Origin: Eledone cirrhosa
Taxonomy: Eukaryota
Direction of reading: 5' to 3'
DNA length: 64,000 nt
NCBI GenBank assembly: GCA_964016885.1
Contig: OZ024743.1
Location: 30,628,001 to 30,692,000 of the forward strand
Of the stretch, positions 5,683 through 61,070 are shown in pieces. Each line of letters starts with the position of its first letter. The first letter of the stretch is position 1. The position numbers and the translations under genes are program-made. Below the pieces are notes generated by a model that was given only the letters and a program-made list of their open reading frames with translations, was not told the origin of the DNA and made no database searches.

Positions 5683-8007
5683 ATGGAAAAACACTACCTG
5701 GATATGTCACTCAAAAACATACCAACCCAGGGTAGAAAGGAATATTTATTGAGCATGATTCAAAAAACTAATGAATTCATTCGACGTGTCAGGTGGAAAA
5801 CGCTCCACTATGATAGAAGCCGTATGAACTCCCACATTAGAAAGTGGTGTACACAACAAATTCGGTTTTAGGACTTGTAAAAACCCACCCACCAACCCAC
5901 TATTAGATGCATTTGAGCAGGACCTTATGAACTTAATCCTTAAAATTAAATTCAAAGGACGCAACACCAACAGCAAATTACAGAAAGATATAAAAAAACT
6001 ACTGGACGACCTTAAAAACACCAAAGGAATTGTAGTAAAAGCGGACAAAACATCAAACCTGTACACTATGGATTGCACTACATACAACAACTTCATTCGA
6101 AAAGAATTACATAAAAAATATAGAAAAACGAGTGAAGTAACCCTTAAGCACATCAATGATGAGGCATGCGAAATAGTGAAAAATCTCGGAATCGAAGATA
6201 GGACAGGACCACTCTTACCGGCGGTACCCACCTTCAATCTTAAGGACCACAAGGTAAACTTTGATAATGACCCTAAAATCAGATTAATCTGCCCCTCTAA
6301 ATCAGATATAGGTAAAATAAGCAAATATATCTTAGATAGAATCATCCCCCAAATTAAGGCTAAGGTTAACATTAAACTCTGGGGGAAGACCCAAGAAGCA
6401 ATAAGATGGTTTAATAGCATTAGCAATAAGAATAAATCTAAGTTTATCCAGTTTGATATCGATGAATATTACTCATCGATATCACCTGAAACTTTGAATA
6501 GAGCCATTAAGTTTGCTAAGGATAACTCTGACCTTACAAACGATGAAATTAAGATTATATTAGAAGCTAGGAAAACTATAGTCAAATTTGAGAACAGTTA
6601 TTGGGTACGTAAAGATAGACCCTCTAACTTTGACATAACAATGGGCTCTAACGATTCGGCGGAAATAACTGATATTGTGGGGTTATTTATCGCCTTTAGA
6701 CTCCAGGAAAAATTCAGCAATCTCCACGGCGGAATATACCGCGACGATGTTCTCCTCCTAGCTAAAAACCTTAATAACCAAAAACTAGAAAAACTACGCA
6801 AAGATATAAGAAAACTACTACTCGAAATAGGACTAACTATAACATATGAATACAACCTTAAAGTAGTTAACTTCCTGGATGTCACACTCAATTTAAACTC
6901 GGGTTTGATTAAACCGTTTCATAAATTGAATGAAAATCTCAAATACGTAAATGTTGGGTCTAACCACCCCATCTCTATAATTAAATCTATCCCTAAAAAT
7001 ATTTCCCTTAGAATCTCGGGTCTATCTTCTAACATACAAGTATTTAAGGAACACGCCGAGTACTACGATAACGCCCTTAGTAAAGCAGGCTACCTCAACA
7101 AAATAGAGTACATAGATGGGAACAATCAAAACACCCAAAATAAATCCCACATAGGTAGATATAATAACACAACACCAAACCACACTTACTACCATAGTAT
7201 GCACACCAGTAAACCAACAAACAAAACTAATAGAAAGTGATGCAAAGAGTAATTATGGTATAACCCCGAATACAATAGCTCCATTAGTACAAATTTACCA
7301 GTACTCTTCTTTAAAATAATTAAAAGACATTTTCCCACATCACACAAATACCACAAAATCCTAAACCCTACCACTATAAGACTGTCATACTCTACAGCGT
7401 TAAACCTTGAACTACACATAAAAAAGATCAATACTAGAAGATTAAACGAAAACACTAAGAACTTAAGTACAAAGAACACAAAAAAAAAACAGTAGACAAT
7501 ACACTACAGAACATAAATAAACCACACCTAAGTTCGTCCGCAATACTACTCCAGAGAAAACCCAACGTACACAACTGTAACTGCACCTATCCTGACAACT
7601 GCCCCCTCGGCAATAACTGCCTGGAAAAAAATATTATTTATAAGTGTACCATTAAATCCGGAGGCAACGAGTGGTATTACGTGGGATCAACGGCAACATC
7701 GTTTAAATCTCGATTGTATAGGCATTCTTACTCAATAAAACACCAGAGCCAAAGAAATGTAACAACTCTAGCAGAAAAAGCTTGGACGCTCAGGGATAGC
7801 GATCAAAAGTTTACCCTAAAATGGGAAAAATTAGCTAAAACCCAAAGCTTTTCCAGGAGCCAAAATTTCTGCAAATTGTGTAATCTTGAGATTTATTACA
7901 TAATCACACACAAGAAGAAACTGCTGAATAACAGAATTGAACGAACATTATTCTGCCGTCACAGAACTAAAACCCTTTTTTCCCACTACAAGCCGAATAT
8001 TACATAA
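5683..8007 (+). pseudogene. Naiad-type PLE RT + GIY-YIG endonuclease, disrupted
   Basis: SLKNIP..Y..RRVRWK N-terminus, KADKT, LKDHK.NF, RLICPSKSDIGKISK, FIQFDIDEYYSSI, FDITMGSND, YRDD, FLDVTLNL, WYNP, CNC-x5-C-x5-C (CNCTYPDNCPLGNNC), IIYKC..YVGST, CKLCNLE, CRH; frameshift near 5860, stops at 7238 and 7250. Confidence 0.92.
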
Positions 8008-8973: not shown

Positions 8974-9090
8974 TTATTCTGATGAAATGACAGTAAATAA
9001 TAACATTGAAATATTGAATGTCTGCATAACTAAAAGTTTGTAGATAGCTGTTTTAGGTTATGTAACTGTTATAGAAACACGTGTCAATAA
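8974..9090 (+). ncRNA. Type I hammerhead ribozyme with expanded helix II
   Basis: ttatt CTGATGA a-atgacagt ...(~70 nt)... actgttat-a GAAA cacgtg TC aataa; palindromic helix III, GUC site. Confidence 0.8.
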
Positions 9091-18341: not shown

Positions 18342-18415
18342 TGAGGTACATGGGAGTCGAACCCACATCTTTGGTTATCCAGACCACTGTGCTACGATTA
18401 CACCAACACATCACC
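18342..18415 (-). other. tRNA-derived sequence (SINE head or tRNA pseudogene)
   Basis: Minus strand: A box TGGTGTAATCGTAGCA, stem tggt/acca, T arm gtggGTTCGACTcccat; acceptor stem imperfect. Confidence 0.65.
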
Positions 18416-18777: not shown

Positions 18778-18861
18778 ACCTTTACCGATCGGTTTCGAAT
18801 CCCAAAAATAAAACGGAGACCATACGGCCTTCGTTGCAAAGAGAGATTCTCGTCAGAAGGT
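18778..18861 (-). ncRNA. Type I hammerhead ribozyme (copy 1)
   Basis: acctt CTGACGA gaatct...ggattc GAAA ccgatcgg TA aaggt. Confidence 0.9.
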
Positions 18862-19260
18862 TCTTTTCATTCAAAGAATATAAAATTCCTGAATTAAAAT
18901 CACAAACTAGCGCTATCAAAAACTGTTCCTGGGATGAGAGTGGATGATGTAGAACAGGTTTATCAAGGGCCGTAGCAAAGATAGAGGCAAAAGGAGGTAG
19001 GTCAAACTAGCCACCGCTGTTGCCAGCAGCAGTCGGAATGATCCGGTTTGTTCTCAACGTTAGTGGAGGTAGTAGTAATATGAAATACGTCCCTTCACGC
19101 ACAAGGCGCCAAGGTACGCATGTATTGTCCAACCAAGTGCCAATGTGGTTCAATGGCGGGTTAATAAATTAACGAGCCAGAACAAATATAAACAAGGTTT
19201 AGTAAATAATGAAAAAGTTTCAAAATAAATTTTAAAAAATTGACTTTACCTACTATAGTT

Positions 19261-19344
19261 ACCTTTACCGATCGGTTTCGAATCCCAAAAATAAAACGGA
19301 GACCATACGGCCTTCGTTGCAAAGAGAGATTCTCGTCAGAAGGT
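19261..19344 (-). ncRNA. Type I hammerhead ribozyme (copy 2)
   Basis: Same core and helices as copy 1. Confidence 0.9.
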
Positions 19345-19729
19345 TCTTTTCATTCAAAGAATATAAAATCTTTGAATTAAAATCACAAACTAGCGCTATC
19401 AAAAACTGTTCCTGGGATGAGTGTGGATGATGTAGAACAGGTTTATCAAGGGCCGTAGCAAAGATAGAGGCAAAAGGAAGTAGGTCAAACTAGCCACCGC
19501 TGTTGCCAGCAGCAGTCGGAATGACCCGGTTTGTTCTCAACGTTAGTGGAGGTAGTAGTAATATGAAATACGTCCCTTCACGCACAAGGACTAAACCTTG
19601 TTTATATTTGTTCTGGCTCGTTAATTTATTAACCCGCATTGAACCACATTGGAACTTGGTTGGACAATACATGCGTACCTTGGTGCCTTGTGCGTGAAGG
19701 GACGTATTTCATATATATATAGAGAGAAA

Positions 19730-30852: not shown

Positions 30853-31196
30853 TATCTCATTTTACTAGTCTCAAGAACGCGTCTACACGACGTGAGAAAG
30901 AATCTCAAAAGGCGGAGGGGGAGATAGTCACGCGATATAACGGTCGAGAAACAGAGCTAAGCCTCTTATAACCCCGAAGAAAATACCACGGAGGCTGAGG
31001 GGGTATTTATATCGAAGCCGTAGAAGAGGTGGTGAAGGAGTCGAGAAGTATGAGTAATGGAAGCTTTCCAGCAGTCCCTACACTTCAAAGATTGCTCGAC
31101 CAGAGGGAGTTATTAACAATATTAATTATATATATATATTATTTTTATATGAGTCCCTAGTGTCCGCGCATTGCCTGGAGACTTAGCTGAGAATAG

Positions 31197-31278
31197 ACTC
31201 CCTGATGACGTAATCATTTCTCGATGGTTTTATTACGTAACTATCTTTATTCCATTACAGAAACTAATTAGTTGGAGT
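31197..31278 (+). ncRNA. Type I hammerhead ribozyme (copy 1)
   Basis: actcc CTGATGA c-gtaat...attac-a GAAA ctaattag TT ggagt. Confidence 0.8.
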
Positions 31279-31391
31279 GAAAATTTTAGTAAGTAAGTTA
31301 ATTTTTAATTTTTTTTTTAATTTTCTTATTTTACGTCTTTCATATTATTGTTCTGTGTCCGCGCATTGCCTGGAGACTTAGCTGAGAATAG

Positions 31392-31473
31392 ACTCCCTGA
31401 TGACGTAATGAATTCTCGAGGGTTATATTACGTAACTATCTTTATCCCATTACAGAAACTAATTAGTTGGAGT
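31392..31473 (+). ncRNA. Type I hammerhead ribozyme (copy 2)
   Basis: actcc CTGATGA c-gtaatg...cattac-a GAAA ctaattag TT ggagt. Confidence 0.82.
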
Positions 31474-31532
31474 GAAAATTTTAGTAAGTTTATTTATTTA
31501 TTTATTTTTAATTTTCTTATTTTACGTCTTTC

Positions 31533-31563
<31 letters not shown>

Positions 31564-31711
31564 TAAATATATATATACATATATATATACACGCATATAT
31601 ATATATATATACTCACACAAACATATCTATATATATATACATACACACACACATGCACACACATACATACAAAATACACATACGTACACAAAATTACATA
31701 CACACATACAT

Positions 31712-31752
<41 letters not shown>

Positions 31753-34632: not shown

Positions 34633-35390
34633 ATAATTGTTTCTACTTTTTGGCACAAGGGTAGCAAATACCCAGTGCATTACTGGTACTTCATTTTATC
34701 GACCCCATAAGTATGAAAGGCAAAGTTAACCTCGGCGTGATTTGAACTCAGACCGTAAAGGGGCGTAACTCTATGCTTTAAAGCATGGTTTCCGACTCTC
34801 TACCGATACTGCCAATCCACCGATAACACATAATTGTTTCTACTTTAGGCACAAGGCCAGCAAATACCCAGTGCATTACTGGTACTTTATTTTATCGACC
34901 CCGTAAGGATGAAAGGCAAAGTCAACCTCAATGGCCTAGAAATAGGCCTACCATCGAAAACATATAGGAGGAAATGCAAATCGAACAAGTTTGCAAATGA
35001 AAATATATCCTTCGCAGATGAGACGTGGAAGTTATTAAGGATAACATTAATAATATAATTGTTTATACTTTTGGCACAAGGCCAGCAGTCCACCAGTGCA
35101 TTACTGGTACTTCATTTTATCGACCCCGAAAGGATGAAAGGCAAGGTTAACCTCGACGGGATTTGAACTGAGACCGTAAAGGGACGTAACTTTAATAATA
35201 TAATTGTTTCTACTTTTGGCACAAGACCAGCAATTACACAGTGCATTACTGGTACTTTATTTTATCGACCCCGTAAGGAAGAAAGGCAAGGTTAACCTCG
35301 GTGGGATTTGAACTCAGAATGGAAAGGGCCGTAACTCTTTGCGTGAAAGCATGGCGTCCAACCTTCTAACGATACTGCCAATCCACTGTT
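34633..35390 (-). mobile_element. Cluster of four head-to-tail Nin-domain SINE copies
   Basis: Copies starting at about 34633, 34830, 35055 and 35200 with tRNA A/B boxes and the Nin core gcctttcatcc..ggggtcgataaaat.aagtaccag. Confidence 0.85.
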
Positions 35391-38779: not shown

Positions 38780-38840
38780 TAGGCATATATATATATACAT
38801 ATATATATATATACATATATATATATCCATATATATATAT

Positions 38841-41800
38841 CCATTTATGGGTTAAATAACTACCTTATTCGAGTGGCGCCGGTAAGGTATTGTCAGCCAT
38901 TGAAAAGAAATATGGAGAGTCGATTTAACAGCACTAGGGTTAGAGCCCCTAATTACACTGTCAAGGAGCAGCCTGGTCGTTCTGACTCTGCTGGCTTAGA
39001 GCCACAGAGAGGGCCAGTGGATGATGGATCAGCTGTCTCTGAGACAAATATAAAGAATGCAGTTTTGTCCTGCAGAAGAGCCATCAAAATGGGCACTTTG
39101 AATGTGAGGACTATTCGAACGCTGGAGAAGAGAGAGGAGTTGGGACATCTGTTCGAGGAGAGTGGTATACAGATACTTGCGATCCAAGAGCACAGGATTC
39201 TACACGATGAGCCCGTGAGGAGTGTGATGATCGGGAGGAAGAGCCAGCTCATCACTACATCGGCAGTGAAGAACACAACAAATGCTGCAGTAGGAGGAGT
39301 GGGTTTTGTGTTCAGTGCAAAAACCAATCTGTTGGTGAGGGAAATAATGCCTATCTCCCCGCGAGTGTTGAGGGTGACCTTCAATGGAAACCCAAGACTG
39401 ACAGTCATCTCAGCCTATAGTCCAACCGAGGGGGACAGTGATGTGAATGCCGAGGAGTTCCATGAGGAGGTGTGTAGAGCTGTCAACACCACTCAGGCAC
39501 ACAATATCCTGCTTGTTTTGGGGGACGTCAATGCACATCTGAGTAAGGAGGGCAGTGAAGATCCTTGCTGGTACTTCCATAACAACACGAACCGAAATGG
39601 AAGACTACTGAGAGACACCCTGCTGGAGGCGAACTTGATGGCGACCAACCTAGGGTTTAGGAAGAATCTGGGGAAGATGTGGACCTACATCTCAGATATG
39701 CACCTGTCCAAGTCCCAGATTGATTTCATTCTGGTGAGGAAAAAGTGGCGGAATAGTGTTCTGAACACGGAACCATACAGCTATTTCAGTACACTGGGTA
39801 GTGACCACCGGCTTGTTAAGAGTGAGGTCCGCGTGAGCTTAAGAAAGAGCAAGGCTCAGCCCCGGAGAACAATCTATGACTGGGGAGCTTTCAAGGAAGA
39901 TGATAAGCTACAGGAGAGGTTCACAGTGGAAGTGAGAAACAGGTTTAGTGCTCTGTGTGGAGAGTCAGAGGAGAGAGAGATTGGATGGACTGAGGAGAGT
40001 GTGACGAGGAGGTACGGGCACTTCACCAATGCAGTGGCGAAAGCAAGTGAAACCCTGGTGCCGAGGAAAAAGAACAAAGGGAAGCACGTCAGCTCTGCAA
40101 ACCCAAAAGTGTGTGCAGCCAGAGAACACCTGAAAGCTGCCAGGGACCAATTCTATGCTGATCCTACGGAGGAGAGGATGGAGACTGTGGAGGTGATGAG
40201 GGAAAAGCTTTGTACCGCTTACACTGAGGTCAGAGAGGAGGCACTGATAGAGAAGATCAGAAGTGTGGAGAGAGCGGTTGACAGATCTGGATGTAAGGAG
40301 AGCTGGATGATCATCAACGAGATCACAGGGAGGAAGAAAAGGTGTTCGAGTCAGATCCAGGGAACGGGGCCCGAGGATAGGAAGAGGAAATGGCTAGACC
40401 ATTTTAGGACCCTACTAGGAGAGCCACCCTCCACAGCCCAGAGCACTGGGGAGATCAGGCGGCTGTTTGAGGAACTGGATGTTGAGACAGAGCCCTTCAC
40501 CAGAGAGGAGCTTCAGAGAGCCAAGAAGAAAATCAAGGAGGGCAAGGCTCATGGAGAAGATGGAGTGGCATCAGAGGTGATGAAGAGGTGTGATTTTGAT
40601 GATATCATCCTGGGGTTCTGTAACGGGGCACTGGAGAAAGGAGTTGCCCCGAATCAGTGGAGGATCAGTAACATCGTCCCAGTGCCAAAGAAGGGAGATC
40701 TCTCTAACACCAACAACTACCGGGGGATCTCACTGACGTCACTTGTGGCAAAGACCCTCAACAGGATGATTCTTAACAGGATTCAGCCTGAGATGGAGAA
40801 GAAGCTCAGGGACAACCAGAACGGCTTCAGAGAGGGTAGATCAACCACCAGTCACATCCTGATGCTGAGGAGGATATTAGAGGGAGCTAGAGCAAAGTGC
40901 CTTCCTGCGGTCATGGTTTTCATTGACTTTAGGAAGGCCTTTGATTCTGTGGACCGTTACTGCCTGATGAAGATCTTACAGGCTTATGGAATCCCCAAGA
41001 GGATAGTGGACCTGATATCACTGCTCTACACCAACACCAAAGCCCAAGTCATTACACCTGATGGGATGACAGAGTTCTTTGAGATACTGGCTGGAGTGCT
41101 CCAGGGAGATACATTGGCTCCCTACCTTTTTATCATCGTAGTAGACTATTGTATGCGCCTTGCACTGGAGAAACACCAGGACACTGGCTTTACTGTAGCA
41201 CCGGCTCAGAGCAGGAGAGTTGGGGCGAAAAAGGTATCGGATGCTGAATTTGCCGTGAAGGAGGCAGATGATTTGATGCGGGAGGTTGAGACTGTGTCGA
41301 TGAGTGTGGGGCTGAGAATGAATGAGACTAAAACAAAATATCTGGTAGAGAATGTTGAGAAGCCAGAGGGGATCACTAATGTAGGCGGGAAGCCGCTGGA
41401 ATTGGTTGAGGACTTCCTGTATTTGGGAGCAAAGATTGGGAATACGGAAGATGATGTGGTTGAGAGGAAGAGCAAGGCCTGGGCGGCGTGTCACAGCTTG
41501 AGATCGGTGTGGAAGTCGGACCTTCGTAGAGACCTGAAAATCCGCCTCTTCATTGCTGTAGTGGAGTCTGTGCTGCTGTATGGGTCTGAGACTTGGACAC
41601 TGACCAAGAGACTCACTCAGATGGTGGATGGGTGCTACACGAGAATGCTGAGGATGGCTCTGAACATTAATCAGTATACACTGAGGGTGAAAAACTCAGA
41701 GCTGTATGGGAGCATCCCAAAAGTCAGCTCAAAAGTGACACAGAGGAGACTGAGGTTGGCTGGACATGCTCACCGACATCCAGAGTTGACATTGCACTCA

Positions 41801-41980
41801 GTGCTCCTTTGGTAGCCCCTACATGGACACACTAGAAGAGGAAGACCAAGGTTAACATATGTTGATGCCCTAAGGACAGACACTGGTCTGTTGGAGATGC
41901 AGAACATGGCAGCGATAATGAGGGACAGAGACCGCTGGAGAGAACTCGTCCATGGATCTTGGGAATTTTATCCGCCTTAG
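38841..41980 (+). mobile_element. RTE-clade LINE, near full length, inserted in (TA)n
   Basis: Single APE+RT ORF; C-terminal RRGRPRLTYVD..D..RDRDRW; ataggcatatatatatata occurs in both flanks (about 38779 and 42019), a possible TSD. Confidence 0.92.
38912..41980 (+). pseudogene. APE endonuclease + reverse transcriptase; catalytic DD deleted, one late stop
   Basis: TLNVRT, IQEHR, AYSPT, GDVNAH, IDFIL, SDHR; YRGISL, QNGFR.GRST, FIDFRKAFDSV, QGDTLAPYLF, YLGA. FADD motif truncated at 41254; TAG at 41813-41815 with the frame continuing to 41980. Confidence 0.92.
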
Positions 41981-49572: not shown

Positions 49573-50499
49573 AACAAAGTCAATCTGTAAACGCAGAAGT
49601 GGATATTTCGAAAAACGTTGCAACCGGAGGAAGACAGGAAAACGATACTTTGGTTCATGGTTACGTTCGCTGGCAAAGAACGGGAAAAAACGAATAATAC
49701 GTCATTAATAGGGGCGGTGAAAAACAATTACGCGCAAAGACAGAACCACGTGTATGGTATAAAAGAGGTCGTAGACTAATGTTCTCTAAGTGGTGCATAG
49801 AGACGTTCTCTGGCAATGAACGAAAAAACGAAGATAATAAGTCATATGTGGAGCGTGGAGAACAATAGCACGCAAAGACAAAACCACGTAAATGGTATAA
49901 GAGAAGTTGTAGACTAAAATTCTAACTAGGAGACCGAATGAATCTCCGCTACAGAGTTAAGAACAAAGTAAATAAATACAATACAGAAGTAATAGAAACA
50001 AATAAATACATACACGCAAACAGATACGTACATACACAAGCATACGCAAAACCTTACCATAGGTATACAAAACCACGCACATATAAATGTGTGTATGTGT
50101 GTATGCTTGTGTACAAATAAATAAATAATTATATAAACGTATATAAGTAAATAAATACGTATATAACAAGCGCACACACATACCTACAAATAAATACACG
50201 AAGGTTCGGAGACGTAAGTCAACTAAAACAAGAAGTACACATATACACACACCCACCATACGTACGAACCTGCATACTCACGCAGACGCAAAACTCCCAT
50301 ATACACATAACCAAACCCTAAATACCAGAATATGTAAAAATTATACGCCATAACAGTCAAATATACGTACGAGAAGGTATACATATCTTCATAAAACTTA
50401 CGGGTAACATATACTTACCTATGCAAATAAGTAAAGGAATAAACAAAACATATACTTAGCTCCCACATCAAGACGTAAAATATCCACGTATAGATCGTG

Positions 50500-51486
50500 C
50501 TATCCGTTAGGGTATAACGTGGGGCTGTAATACAGGAAAGTTTTGTGCAATTTATGTTTACAAGCCGAAATTGCCTCAGATTTTTTGTTTAAGATGTGGT
50601 CTGTGGCGTAGAGTATTTCCAGGGCCTCAGCGGCGCAGAGGTCACATGGTCTTTTATTTCCGTTATACGATCTAGCCCTAGCTAGGATCTCCCAGTGTAA
50701 CTTATATTGGGTGTGGTTGTCTTTTAGACTCCAGATATAAGCTGAAAGTGAAGTCATATTCCTTCTTAGAGGGTAACGAATAGAATGGGTATGCATGTAA
50801 AGACGCTGCTTGAAACTATTGGCGGTTAACCCTATGTAGGCCCTACGGGACGTGGGTGTTACAACCTTACATTTGTAGACAATGTTACTAGAGAGGCATT
50901 TCCCGGATAGGGGACAATCAGCCCTATTCCTACAATTACAGTTAGTACTAACTACAGGGTTGCACGTGTTCCTACGGCTAGGTAGTTTAGCTAAATTTGA
51001 AGCTGTGATGTTATGTGCAAGGTTAGGAGTCGTAGAGTAAGAAATTTTAATAGTGTTTCTATTAAAAAATTTACTATATTTATGTGTAGGGGGGAAATGC
51101 TTCGTAATAAGGGAAAGAAAGATCTTAGCTAATGGTGTGGCCACCTCCATAGTGTATGGTGGGTTAAACCAACAAATGCGACGGGATCTATTTCTTCTAG
51201 GTCTATTCCCGTACTCTGTATATGCTACCTTATCGACAAATCCACTTCGAGCAAGAGCTTCATTGTAATAAGTGGAATGGACGTTGAAAATGCGCTCGTT
51301 GGTGGAAAGACGGGAAAGCCTCAACGAAACGTTTTTTACCAGGTTCTTGGTTATGCTGGCAGGATGGTTGGAATGCTTACTCATGTAATTAAGCGTATCA
51401 TTCGGCTTTCTATACGGGTAATACAACCCATTCAGTAAATTGAGGGTAACGTCGAGGTAATTAACGACCGAGAGATTGGCCTCATT
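50500..51486 (-). pseudogene. PLE RT thumb + uninterrupted GIY-YIG endonuclease domain
   Basis: YLDVTLNL, YRKPND, SNHP, WFNPPY, IKISYS, CNCRNRADCPLSGKC, IVYKC..YIGLT..FKQR, CDLCAAE, LNKKSE, CKH; no internal stop. Confidence 0.92.
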
Positions 51487-51497
51487 ATCACTATATT

Positions 51498-51529
<32 letters not shown>

Positions 51530-51642
51530 TATATATGTGTGTGTGAATAAAGTAATTCCGTCGGAACGGTCCAGGAAAAAAGATTGCTCTATGTAAGTTA
51601 CAGAGCTTATTAGTTATGTAATAAACATCATAAGATAATTAT

Positions 51643-57516: not shown

Positions 57517-60500
57517 CTCTTTGAGTCTCAGTCATTAATGTTAGTTAACTGGAAAGTTTGTTGAGATGAATATCAAGCCACTACCTGCAGCCTCAGATAT
57601 TCAGGACGTATCGGAGGCTTCTTGCTATTCCCAGCAAGCATGCCTTTTGAAGCGTTCCAAGAAGCGTGAAAAGGCCAATTTTCTTTAACTATCCCTGGAA
57701 ACTTTTGGAGATAGTCCCTAGTGCGCCTATGACAATCGGGATCACTTTGACTTCATGGCAGTTCCAAATCCATTTTACCTCCCACTTTATGTCCTGGTAT
57801 CGGTTAATTTTCTCCCTCTCCTTCTCTTGCACTCTCGTGTCGAATGGGCAGGCCACATCCACAATCAGGCGCAATCTTTTTTCTTTGTCCACAACCACCA
57901 GGTCAGGTCTATTGTGTTCCCGTTTCTTGTCCGTCTGTATCCTAAAATCCCACAGCACCTTCACCTGATCGTTTTCTATCACCGCCTGGTAAATCGTTTA
58001 CTTTGCATAGGTGCCAGTGGATCACCCTGCCCATCACATCAAGTCTCCAGCCCTTATAGTCTGGGCTAGGTGTTTACACTCGGATACAATGTGAGCCAAA
58101 GTCTTCTCTCTCTCTCCACAGATCCTGCACAGTGGGCTAGCCTCCTCATTGTAAATGTGGTGTTTCAACCAGTTCCATGTCTGTGGATCTCTAAATTCAG
58201 TTTTCTCAAAGAAGGTAGTATGAAGGGATTTTTCCTGAAGGCTGCTCTTTCTCCTTGATGTTATTTCCTCCTTGGACATCCTCTGGCCTATTGTCCCCTC
58301 CTTCAGTACAGTTCTGAGCATTGGCTCCTTACTATCAGTCACGTATTTGTGTAGGTTGTTTCTCTCCATCTGAACACAGTCCTCTATGCTGATAAGACCT
58401 CTTCCACCCTCAGATCCCATTAAGTAGAGTCTATGGACATCACTCCTCTTGTGGAACATGTTGTAGATAGTCAATAGCTTCCTAGTCTTCCTATCCATTT
58501 CTTTTTGTTCAGCAACATTCCATCTCAGAATTCCCGCACTGTACCTAATAATAGACACAGCTCGGGAATTTACTGCACTTATGGCATTCCTACTGATGTG
58601 ACTTTAATACGCTCCTTACTCTCCGAAGGTATTCAGTTCTTATCAATTCCTTCATTTTTTTTTACCTTGATGTCATCAGCCTCCAGAACGCCCAAATACT
58701 TGTATCCTTCCTCAGAGTCAATTTCTTTTATCATCTCACCTGTTGGTATCTGGATTCCGTTTCTTCTGCTCAACTTACCCCCTCCTCATCACAATGACTC
58801 CACACTTACAAATACCAAATTGCATACATATATCATTGCTGAAAATACGGACAGTGTCAACAAGCACATCCAACTCCTTCTCACTCTTCCCGAAGAGCTT
58901 AAGATCTTCCATGAAGAGGAGGTGATTGATGGTAAGCCCTCCCTTTCCAAACCTGTATCCTGCTCTCACTTTTGCAGTACACTGGTCAGGGGCATCAGGT
59001 CAAGGACAAACAACAGAGGGGACAGAATATCTCCCTGAAGATACCTCTCTTGATCTTCACGCCCCCAGGATTCTCCAGTTGATGTTAACTCTGTTTCCCA
59101 GGACTTCATACTTTTGCCCAACAACTGTCTGATGTTATCTGCCACCCTGAATATCTCCAGGCTTTTGGTGATCCAAGAATGAGGCACCATGTCAAATGCC
59201 TTTTTGTAGTCTATTCATCACATGGCAAGACCAGTGTGTCTCCTCTTGCAATTCCTCATTACCATCTTATCAATAAGTAACTGGTCCTTTGTACCACGTG
59301 ACTTCTTTCGGCATCCTTTCTGTTCGTCCGGTAACAAGTTGTTTTTGTGGAGGTGTTGGTAGATTTCCTCAGACATAATGCTTGTCAACAGTTTCCACAT
59401 TACGAACAGACATGTGATAGGTCTATAGTTGGTAACATCATTACCCTTGATTCGGTCTTTCATTATCAGAACTGTGGTACCTCTTGGCAACCACTCTAGT
59501 ACCTCACCTGAGATCAAGCAGTCATTGAACATGGTTGTCAGTTTCGGGTGGGGGGATGTTATGTTTTTAATCCAATACCCATGCACACCATCTGGGCCAG
59601 GTGATTTCCAGTTTTTTAGTTTTTTGGCCTGCCCCTTAAGAGTTTCAACTGTGATACTCAAATCAGTTTGTTGGTGTGCCTGTTCACTGATCTCCTTCTG
59701 TACTGTCTCAATACACACTGCCTGGTCATTATGTCTAACATCCTGCTCCCATATTCCTCTCCAGAATGTTTTAGTTTGTTCCACCTCAGGGATCAAGTCG
59801 TTGCCTCTTTCTTTCCCTTCTAGCTGTCCAAACAGCATCTTCTGGTTGTTGTCAAAATGCGGTTCTGTCTATACTGGCTGACTCTGTTCTCGTATCCCCT
59901 GATTTTTGCACTCTTTGCTACAATGCGTTACTTCACTTCCTCTATGATAATATATAGCTTTTTACTCCTAGTGTTGTACTTTATTTCCAGTCTAATTTTA
60001 GTGTCTATGTTTGTCAGTGTCCCATTCAGTAGGGACTCAAGCTTTCCAATGTGATTTGTCATTTCCCTGATTTGACCACTCAGTCGTTTCTTCCACCAAG
60101 GCTCTGCACTTTCTTGTCTGTTGTTTCCTCTCGCTTTTATACCAAGTAGTTTCCTCACCGTATTTGCTGTTGCTTTGAGAATATTGTTGCACTGGTGAAG
60201 GCTCCTCGCCTCAAGGTATGGGATGACTTTGTTTACCTTAGCTGTTGTTTCTTTTAACTTTTTCCTGTCTACAAATCTTAGGTTCATAGGTCTCCCACTA
60301 TCATTGTTCAATTCATCTACCACTAAGTTTAGGCTATCTACCAAATCTTTTCCTAGCCCGTCAGCATTCATCTCCTCAGTGGCCGTATCTCTGTTCCAGG
60401 TATTATTTATCTCAGCATTCAGATCATTGTCTGTTTCGCGTGGTTCCTCCGTTCTCTCGACCTCTTCACCTTCATTTCCCACTGGCTCTTTTGCCTGGCA

Positions 60501-61070
60501 TACTCCACCTTCCATCTCCAAGCTAATCTCTCTGCTCAGTTCCTCCAGTTCCAGCTCGCTTATCCACCCATTAGTTCTTATTACCCGAGCCTGCCCGGCC
60601 AGTTTTTGTTCATCTAATTTAAATGGACCAATCTCGTTCCAGATGTTATGCATCCTTTTCCTATAGCCTTTCTCCTTGGGGTTACTCTTCAGGTAACATT
60701 GCATAACATTTCTATTCAATTCTTTCGTCCAGTTGGTTCTGGTCCCTTTCCTTCTTCTTCTTCCTCCGACACCAGCAGTATTTGGTTGACTGCCAGGTCC
60801 CTGCTGCTGAGCCAGGGGCCACCTGTTGGGTGAGAGTCTGTCACATGACGTTCTAGTCTCCATTTCACCATTATTCGAACTGTTTAGGTTCGATATTTAA
60901 ACACTCTTATCGAGGATTGGCGAATGTATGGTTACATAGCCATCTGTGGATTCAGCGTCGCCGGTGTTTGCGCCGCTCCACTTGGCACTTGTGTGGCATT
61001 ATCACCACGCTGTAGACGAACACAAATAAACAAACAAACACACTGGCCGAAAAGACCCCAAAAATGAATA
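57517..61070 (-). mobile_element. Near full-length Dong/R4-clade LINE (RT + CCHC + RLE), degraded; 5' limit approximate
   Basis: N-terminal W..E.N..VM.CY..S.P..GYRKRM..EQKLAGQAR; RT YRPITCL, EQKGC, GTKDQLLIDK, KAFDMVPH, QGDILSPLLF, HLLFMEDLKLF; CRICG..HIVSEC; RPDLVVVD..IVDVACP..E.EKINRY; (TAA)n at the 3' end; several stops and frameshifts. Confidence 0.92.

Follow-up and report, generated by a model that had tools for sequence, protein, structure and literature searches.

The 64,000-nucleotide stretch of DNA analysed here (the window) contains two type I hammerhead copies starting at 31160 and 31355, and their 195-bp spacing raises the question of whether they form a small retrozyme in their own right or are the remains of a larger element. 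A descriptor scan of the 64-kb window gives 9 candidate rows, the clearest being these two copies and a pair spaced by 483 bp at 18783-19339 (-). Both copies, their spacing and the parts named in the preliminary description are present as given there, and the locus is arranged as follows.

About 31124-31138: short TA run preceding the 5' end of the insertion
31137..31536 (+): whole insertion, a 5'-truncated, internally deleted dimer of a ~544-bp repeat as mapped onto the natural family unit
31197..31278 (+): hammerhead copy 1 (helix I, CUGAUGA, extended helix II, GAAA, palindromic helix III, GUU)
31263..31272 (+; copy 2: 31458-31467): self-complementary helix III
31273..31274 (+; copy 2: between 31468 and 31469): predicted self-cleavage site after U17, between unit positions 78 and 79 (u78/79), from hammerhead numbering and the junction cluster
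31346..31368 (+): locus-specific junction creating the 195-bp period, where unit position ~508 follows the tail's first 9 nt; 1 genome-wide match
31392..31473 (+): hammerhead copy 2
31514..31536 (+): recurrent family 3' end A, running into (TA)n, likely a reverse-transcription start; 4,584 exact matches, and 64 of 148 arms end there
31533..31750 (no strand): (TA)n microsatellite target, 3' side

Helix I of copy 1 is formed by ACUCC (31197-31201) and GGAGU (31274-31278), and the core by CUGAUGA (31202-31208) and GAAA (31260-31263), which enclose a helix II domain of 51 nt (31209-31259). Helix III is the palindrome ACUAAUUAGU (31263-31272) and leads into GUU with a predicted cut between 31273 and 31274, a placement after U17 that we take from the established hammerhead numbering. 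The elements of copy 2 are those of copy 1 shifted by +195, and CUGANGA, GAAA, A15.1-U16.1 and H17 are present in both copies. The base of helix II consists of an unpaired C opposite A (C..A), followed by GUAAUG/CAUUAC with a distal hairpin on top. The copies differ, as had been described, only in the helix II domain and the T-rich spacer: every one of the 5 substitutions in the first 126 nt lies within the former, and the remaining differences lie in the latter. Compared with a family copy, copy 1 carries 4 substitutions, including a private G>C that disrupts the sixth helix II pair, and copy 2 carries a single private one in the distal helix II hairpin. The probability that 5 changes avoid the 31 core, helix I and helix III positions among 126 is about 0.24 (hand arithmetic). 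The differences between the window copies are uninformative on selection because they are mostly private mutations, one of which breaks a helix II pair; the constraint suggested in the preliminary description is thus not borne out by these two copies, but it does hold for the fold when subfamilies are compared.

The origin of the spacing can be read from the unit content of the insertion, which comprises unit positions ~485-543 and 1-160, then 508-543 and 1-150. Copy 1 continues for 9 nt beyond the first family 3' end and then jumps to unit position ~508, with about 348 bp missing and a 1-nt overlap at the junction. The 26-mer across this junction has 1 match in the 3.0-Gb genome, and two diagnostic motifs are exclusive to the locus among the loci compared. 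Copy 1 has flanking sequence on both sides that is absent from copy 2, and no private change is common to both; a deletion or template jump within a dimer therefore fits better than local duplication. The 195-bp spacing is likely the result of one such event, and the locus itself is a damaged family copy in ordinary decay, as seen in the assembly sequence.

The assembly searched comprises 3.0 Gb and is rich in (TA)n. DNA similarity searches return 1,781, 2,176 and 1,877 candidates (40 scored in each). A 27-nt ribozyme stretch has 948 exact genome matches compared with 0 for its reversed control, and ribozyme occurrence therefore exceeds chance; the 3'-end 23-mer has 4,584 matches and a tail motif common to related families 7,750, both with reversed controls of 0. 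Loci were sampled in two ways, as all 58 loci behind the first 100 listed 3'-end 23-mer matches, chosen against ranking bias, and as 40 loci picked from the first 100 listed ribozyme 27-mer matches, mostly single copies. L135 was dropped before the arm-end count as a duplicate of L134, and L092 and L094 are absent from the spacing and arm-end counts. The natural unit measures 538-545 bp in the window subfamily and 516-522 bp in another, units are colinear across subfamilies 7-23% apart, and of the 49 spacings between same-strand tandem copies, 46 lie within 471-546 bp and none falls below that range. The ~544-bp unit contains no long open reading frame (ORF), and, L108 excepted, no family copy is continuous with one at the loci examined, 90 of them sampled by position (L092-L181) and 20 by the tail motif; motif-like words in unit translations were set aside as likely chance. 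An ORF with RT plus GIY-YIG, the criterion for an autonomous EN+ Penelope-type element (PLE), is absent from the unit and the sampled copies, and tandem ORF-less units each with a type I hammerhead, the criterion for a non-LTR retrozyme, are present. The family consists of thousands of protein-free ~540-bp repeats and is a new family of a known kind, bearing a real, selected hammerhead.

Selection on the fold is supported by the comparison of subfamilies, which suggests that the hammerhead is maintained across them, and the hammerhead identity of both window copies is likewise supported. Among 205 stretches anchored on the 3'-end motif, the 117 that covered the ribozyme were kept and form 9 clusters; every cluster anchored outside the ribozyme retains the core in its majority row, part of cluster 3 having itself been sampled through the ribozyme 27-mer. 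A region-by-region conservation table was discarded as circular at the GAAA/helix III stretch on which it was anchored, and core retention was taken from the clusters anchored outside the ribozyme. An alignment of 22 hand-picked genomic copies, of the kind that the preliminary description had proposed for all copies as a check on covariation, gives two-sided helix II changes, counted as sequences and not as events. Here, 94.9% of cells are paired compared with 32-48% in slid controls, and two helix II pairs and two distal pairs are altered on both sides, pair 2 being U-A in 12 copies, A-U in 7 and G-C in 3 and pair 5 being G-C in 12 and U-A in 9. Helix I shows a C-G>U-G change; helix III is invariant and hence uninformative for covariation. 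Two of the 5 covariation measures did not beat shuffles (54/500 and 469/500). RNAalifold recovers the hammerhead fold unprompted from the alignment. In a set of 197 copies, five fully paired helix II versions dominate (91, 29, 20, 13 and 12), and pair 2 shows a fourth type, C-G, in 20 copies, so that U-A, A-U, G-C and C-G are all seen.

With its C..A base, helix II deviates from the canonical G10.1-C11.1/G12 arrangement. Pair 10.1-11.1, next to A9 and G12, lacks the usual pairing and is C..A in most copies, U-A in a few and A..A in one subfamily; this pair is usual rather than defining, with a U.U precedent in the axolotl HHR_Amex2 (PMC7229834). An Rfam search of the window returns no hammerhead at gathering score, nor at E<=10, for which the long helix II domain is a likely reason. 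The palindromic helix III has an energy of +1.5 kcal/mol as a hairpin alone and of -9.0 kcal/mol as a 10-bp duplex between two copies, and the window pair reaches -56.5 kcal/mol as a double hammerhead compared with -47.0 kcal/mol as two single hammerheads. The hammerhead is not the minimum-energy fold: the minimum for the window tandem, -64.9 kcal/mol, is a misfold below the double hammerhead, and helix II has probabilities of 0.11 and 0.23. From these folding models we infer that cleavage would be slow and dimer- or protein-assisted, as has been reported for PLE hammerheads (PMC4209133; PMC11167929). A pairing of ACGUAAU with AUUACGU that hides the core (probability 0.77 in copy 2) was considered as a switch and dropped, as it is not kept in other subfamilies (by eye).

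Several unrelated hammerhead families in the genome have an unpaired helix II base (C..A, A..A or U..U), and others have a normal G-C; descriptors demanding that pair would therefore miss the former. In a hammerhead at window positions 8979-9085 (+), helix III is palindromic and the helix II domain, ~75 nt long, has A..A at its base; this hammerhead lies 1 kb downstream of Neptune-like frames (5828-8004), shortly before a (TA)n run. Two more hammerhead-like motifs are found at 51694-51649 (-), adjoined by a 5'-truncated PLE-like frame (50503-51588, -), and at 52262-52214 (-). The 483-bp hammerhead repeat family at 18783-19339 (-), with truncated pieces near 19636 (+) and 44845 (-), features a paired G-C helix II base and a 10-nt palindrome, and a motif just after the first 3' end is common to the 544-bp, 483-bp and 457-bp (L234, L111) families. 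Elsewhere in the genome, L039:1-900 (-) contains the start of a PLE-like ORF, and a compact hammerhead belonging to it precedes the ATG by about 150 nt. The window further contains a 1,010-aa LINE-like open frame (38783-41812, +), a PLE-like element (1-2957, +) and a broken LINE-like element (57651-60896, -), labels that presumably hold and that we give from motifs. A tRNA-like match at 18342-18412 (-) is perhaps a SINE head, and two-copy repeats of 145 and 138 bp at 35042-35336 and 49663-49917 are without a hammerhead match.

The arms of the family show a strict insertion pattern. The 148 arms counted at 89 loci comprise 64 with end A (u150), 67 with a second end B (~u263) and 17 with other ends; the 131 that stop at A or B continue into (TA)n or (CT)n(TA)n. 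Head-to-head insertions number 56; all 41 with both ends typed combine A with B (p 4.5e-13), and the 15 others had one end untyped. Autonomous elements are also present in the genome, among them one with a 3,542-bp unit and a 784-aa open frame containing RT-like and GIY-YIG-like motifs and a Cys linker, which we take to be Neptune-type from these motifs. A Pfam search with 7 PLE-like frames gives no match above cut-off. The two 3' ends of this element are separated by 80 nt, and the two-end rule holds in 13 of the 13 pairs that were typed (hand count); L212 (G000:C1:91472500-91482400) is a young representative, and many copies have open frames of 780-790 aa. As parent of the 544-bp family it was rejected, being without a hammerhead core (no CUGANGA on its sense strand) and without clear DNA similarity to the family (nothing real, best E 0.022). 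An autonomous parent with matching terminal sequence was not found, one autonomous family having been compared in full. In one case, L108/L182, an A arm of the family is fused head to head to the distal-end arm of the Neptune-type element; the fusion (L108:432-3200) runs through a 14-nt fold-back and is possibly a co-insertion of two RNAs.

The family thus combines partial tandems, 5' truncation, an inverted 5' copy, a tail at one end and a microsatellite target. According to PMC8557442, PLE copies form partial tandems, carry an inverted 5' copy, favour (TA)n and frequently have the tail at just one end; two internal RT starts define this tail (PMC11167929). The ~544-bp repeat with its PLE-type hammerhead was probably copied into (TA)n by the reverse transcriptase/endonuclease of an autonomous PLE, the 195-bp spacing likely being a single deletion or template jump, and from the insertion pattern we infer that mobilisation by the PLE protein takes place in trans. 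In the proposed mechanism, tandem units would be transcribed as multimers and the PLE protein would nick both strands of the (TA)n target. Priming of cDNA would occur within the RNA, with one strand using a site 72 nt and the other a site about 185 nt downstream of the cut, and would be followed by head-to-head joining of the two cDNAs or completion of one alone. The ribozyme would likely fold as a slow double hammerhead via its palindrome, with most templates uncut (or re-ligated) and a minority beginning at the cut site.

A prediction on junctions at the cut site was written down before testing. A general pile-up of 5' ends is not seen there (1 of 86 sampled 5' ends at u77-81), and 75 of the 76 arms that reach u78/79 pass it by more than 5 nt; most templates would therefore have been uncut or ligated. 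The cut-site signal appears in targeted junction searches only, which were prompted by the single locus L229, where both arms start at the cut site. At 16 loci, each arm contains the bases that immediately follow the cut; the spacer between the arms is 0-3 nt long in 11 of these loci, and in three of the 11 it is 0. Inspection of 14 double cut-site loci shows 13 to be A+B insertions, one interrupted, with arms that are either a short piece after the cut or one unit longer. Of 29 loci with (TA)n-joined arms, 13 have the start at u77-80, a count that has no downstream control. At L249, one arm contains a second internal junction, again restarting at the cut site. A downstream-anchored control was tallied by hand for the first 50 of 275 loci. 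In 27 of these 50, the junction coincides with the AAAATTTT palindrome or is filler. A single arm lies upstream of that palindrome in 13 others, of which 5 are compatible with u77-79, and both arms lie upstream of u85 in the remaining 10, 6 of them at u78-79 and 0 with both at u80-84. This clustering gives a p of 6e-7, or 0.002 under a symmetric-arm null. The 483-bp family has 0 double cut-site junctions in 9 loci, and 4 of its 8 arms upstream of the palindrome start <=1 nt from the cut (hand tally; weak). The cut-site junctions may well be a trace of ribozyme cleavage in living cells, and it is somewhat probable that the insertion class with both cDNA arms, one per internal start, ending at the cut site and bluntly joined records cleavage by a PLE-type hammerhead in vivo.

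As a possible though doubtful alternative to cleaved RNA ends, short T/A microhomology could have produced the junctions at u78-79, or the reverse transcriptase could have stalled on reaching the base of the helix III duplex, which would likewise end cDNA near u78. Terminations exceed expectation all along the ribozyme (for u1-78 after 300 nt, 15 events compared with 4.9), palindromes attract junctions, as in the 27 control loci, a start at u78 may be a templated U, and an untemplated A is indistinguishable from a copied U; the single sampled 5' end at u77-81 and the result for the 483-bp family point in the same direction. Stalling or microhomology fits poorly with three blunt junctions in which both arms begin exactly at u79 and one with a single G between, where no microhomology is available, with the concentration of control loci at u78-79 and none at u80-84, and with the (TA)n-joined arms, uncontrolled downstream as they are. 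Another question is which template was mainly copied. A ligated ~544-nt circular RNA undergoing rolling-circle reverse transcription, in place of an uncut linear multimer, is a tentative candidate and is compatible with PLE mobilisation. The read-through of nearly all arms at the cut site, arms reaching 1,340 nt in the sample and arrays of up to six or more units agree with it, and circular forms of coral, mussel and axolotl retrozymes have been described (PMC7229834). However, uncut transcripts of existing tandems account equally well for read-through, and unprocessed RNA is the dominant PLE substrate in vitro (PMC11167929).

Two further explanations dispense with such copying of a ~544-bp ribozyme unit. 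Spread of a satellite by DNA-level recombination, or derivation from terminal-repeat debris of an ORF-bearing PLE, would make the ribozyme incidental; most PLE copies are indeed 5'-truncated, and short arrays exist (C1604, L128), but the family is dispersed, its copies have fixed 3' ends while their 5' ends vary, no ORF is found where one unit joins the next, and compensatory changes accumulate between subfamilies, which leaves this very unlikely. Less probable still is a 195-nt retrozyme monomer in its own right, with the pair processed to a propagating 195-nt circle. The two cores are intact and, at a distance of 195 bp, might fold together as a double hammerhead, and the size lies inside the 170-400 nt range of animal retrozyme circles (PMC7229834). 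Both copies, however, bear private changes, and of the tail that separates the two family ends the 195-nt unit retains just 9 nt, tail-like sequence being required for recognition in other PLEs (PMC11167929). The junction seen once genome-wide and the spacings of 471-546 bp, 0 of 49 falling below 471 bp, rule out 195 bp as a propagating family monomer, and the retrozyme-sized monomer of the preliminary description gives way to a family unit of about 516-546 bp.

With PLE-mediated copying of the ~544-bp unit as the preferred reading, the interest lies in the family-wide junction pattern and not in the window locus; the element is of a known kind, and what is new is a testable observation on cut-site junctions. 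The function of EN+ PLE hammerheads is called unclear in the accessible text of PMC8557442, and that of PMC11167929 reports no RNA-seq reads ending at the cleavage site and cleavage to be unnecessary in vitro. Cut-site junctions provide a cleavage test based on genome sequence, repeatable in any PLE-rich assembly. If the cleavage reading is true, cleaved RNA serves as template for a two-site reverse-transcription complex of PLEs, ribozyme activity can be assayed by counting junctions in any assembly, and the family represents a slow, dimer-dependent hammerhead variant with an unpaired helix II base and a 51-nt domain missed by standard models. The strict pairing of two 3' ends constrains the priming of both target strands, and the family provides genomic evidence, though no proof, that animal retrozymes are mobilised by PLEs. 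Openly accessible main texts yielded no literature on PLE insertion junctions at a hammerhead cut site; the accessible text of PMC6962438 merely counts hammerheads in a squid genome.

Animal non-LTR retrozymes (PMC7229834; 10.64898/2026.07.22.740005) resemble the family in their ORF-less tandem units with one type I hammerhead each, their high copy number and their presumed mobilisation by PLEs. The preprint 10.64898/2026.07.22.740005 proposes animal retrozymes to be non-autonomous PLE derivatives originating from PLE terminal repeats, and 1 of 9 dimers tested there cleaved. The family unit lies within the 51-972 bp range of this preprint and is larger than the 150-450 bp retrozyme repeats of PMC7229834. 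In contrast to these retrozymes, the family has a PLE-type and not a canonical hammerhead and occurs mostly as dispersed, 5'-truncated, inverted insertions with two fixed 3' ends.

The hammerheads of PLE terminal repeats (PMC4209133; PMC6765202) are likewise of type I, with a 5-bp helix I, a long helix II, an unpaired base after A9, a palindromic helix III and a predicted dependence on dimers. The family differs from them in its 10-nt palindrome, its 51-nt two-stem helix II domain and an additional A before GAAA, which gives the C..A base of helix II. The insertions of the Neptune, Naiad and Poseidon EN+ PLEs (PMC8557442, PMC11167929) share with the family the (TA)n targets, partial tandems, the inverted 5'-truncated copy, the tail at one end and the two internal RT starts. 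Compared with these elements, the family is without protein, and its tail measures about 113 nt instead of 30-40. It also shows a strict A+B pairing, whereas the in vitro study of Poseidon detected no strand difference in start site (PMC11167929).
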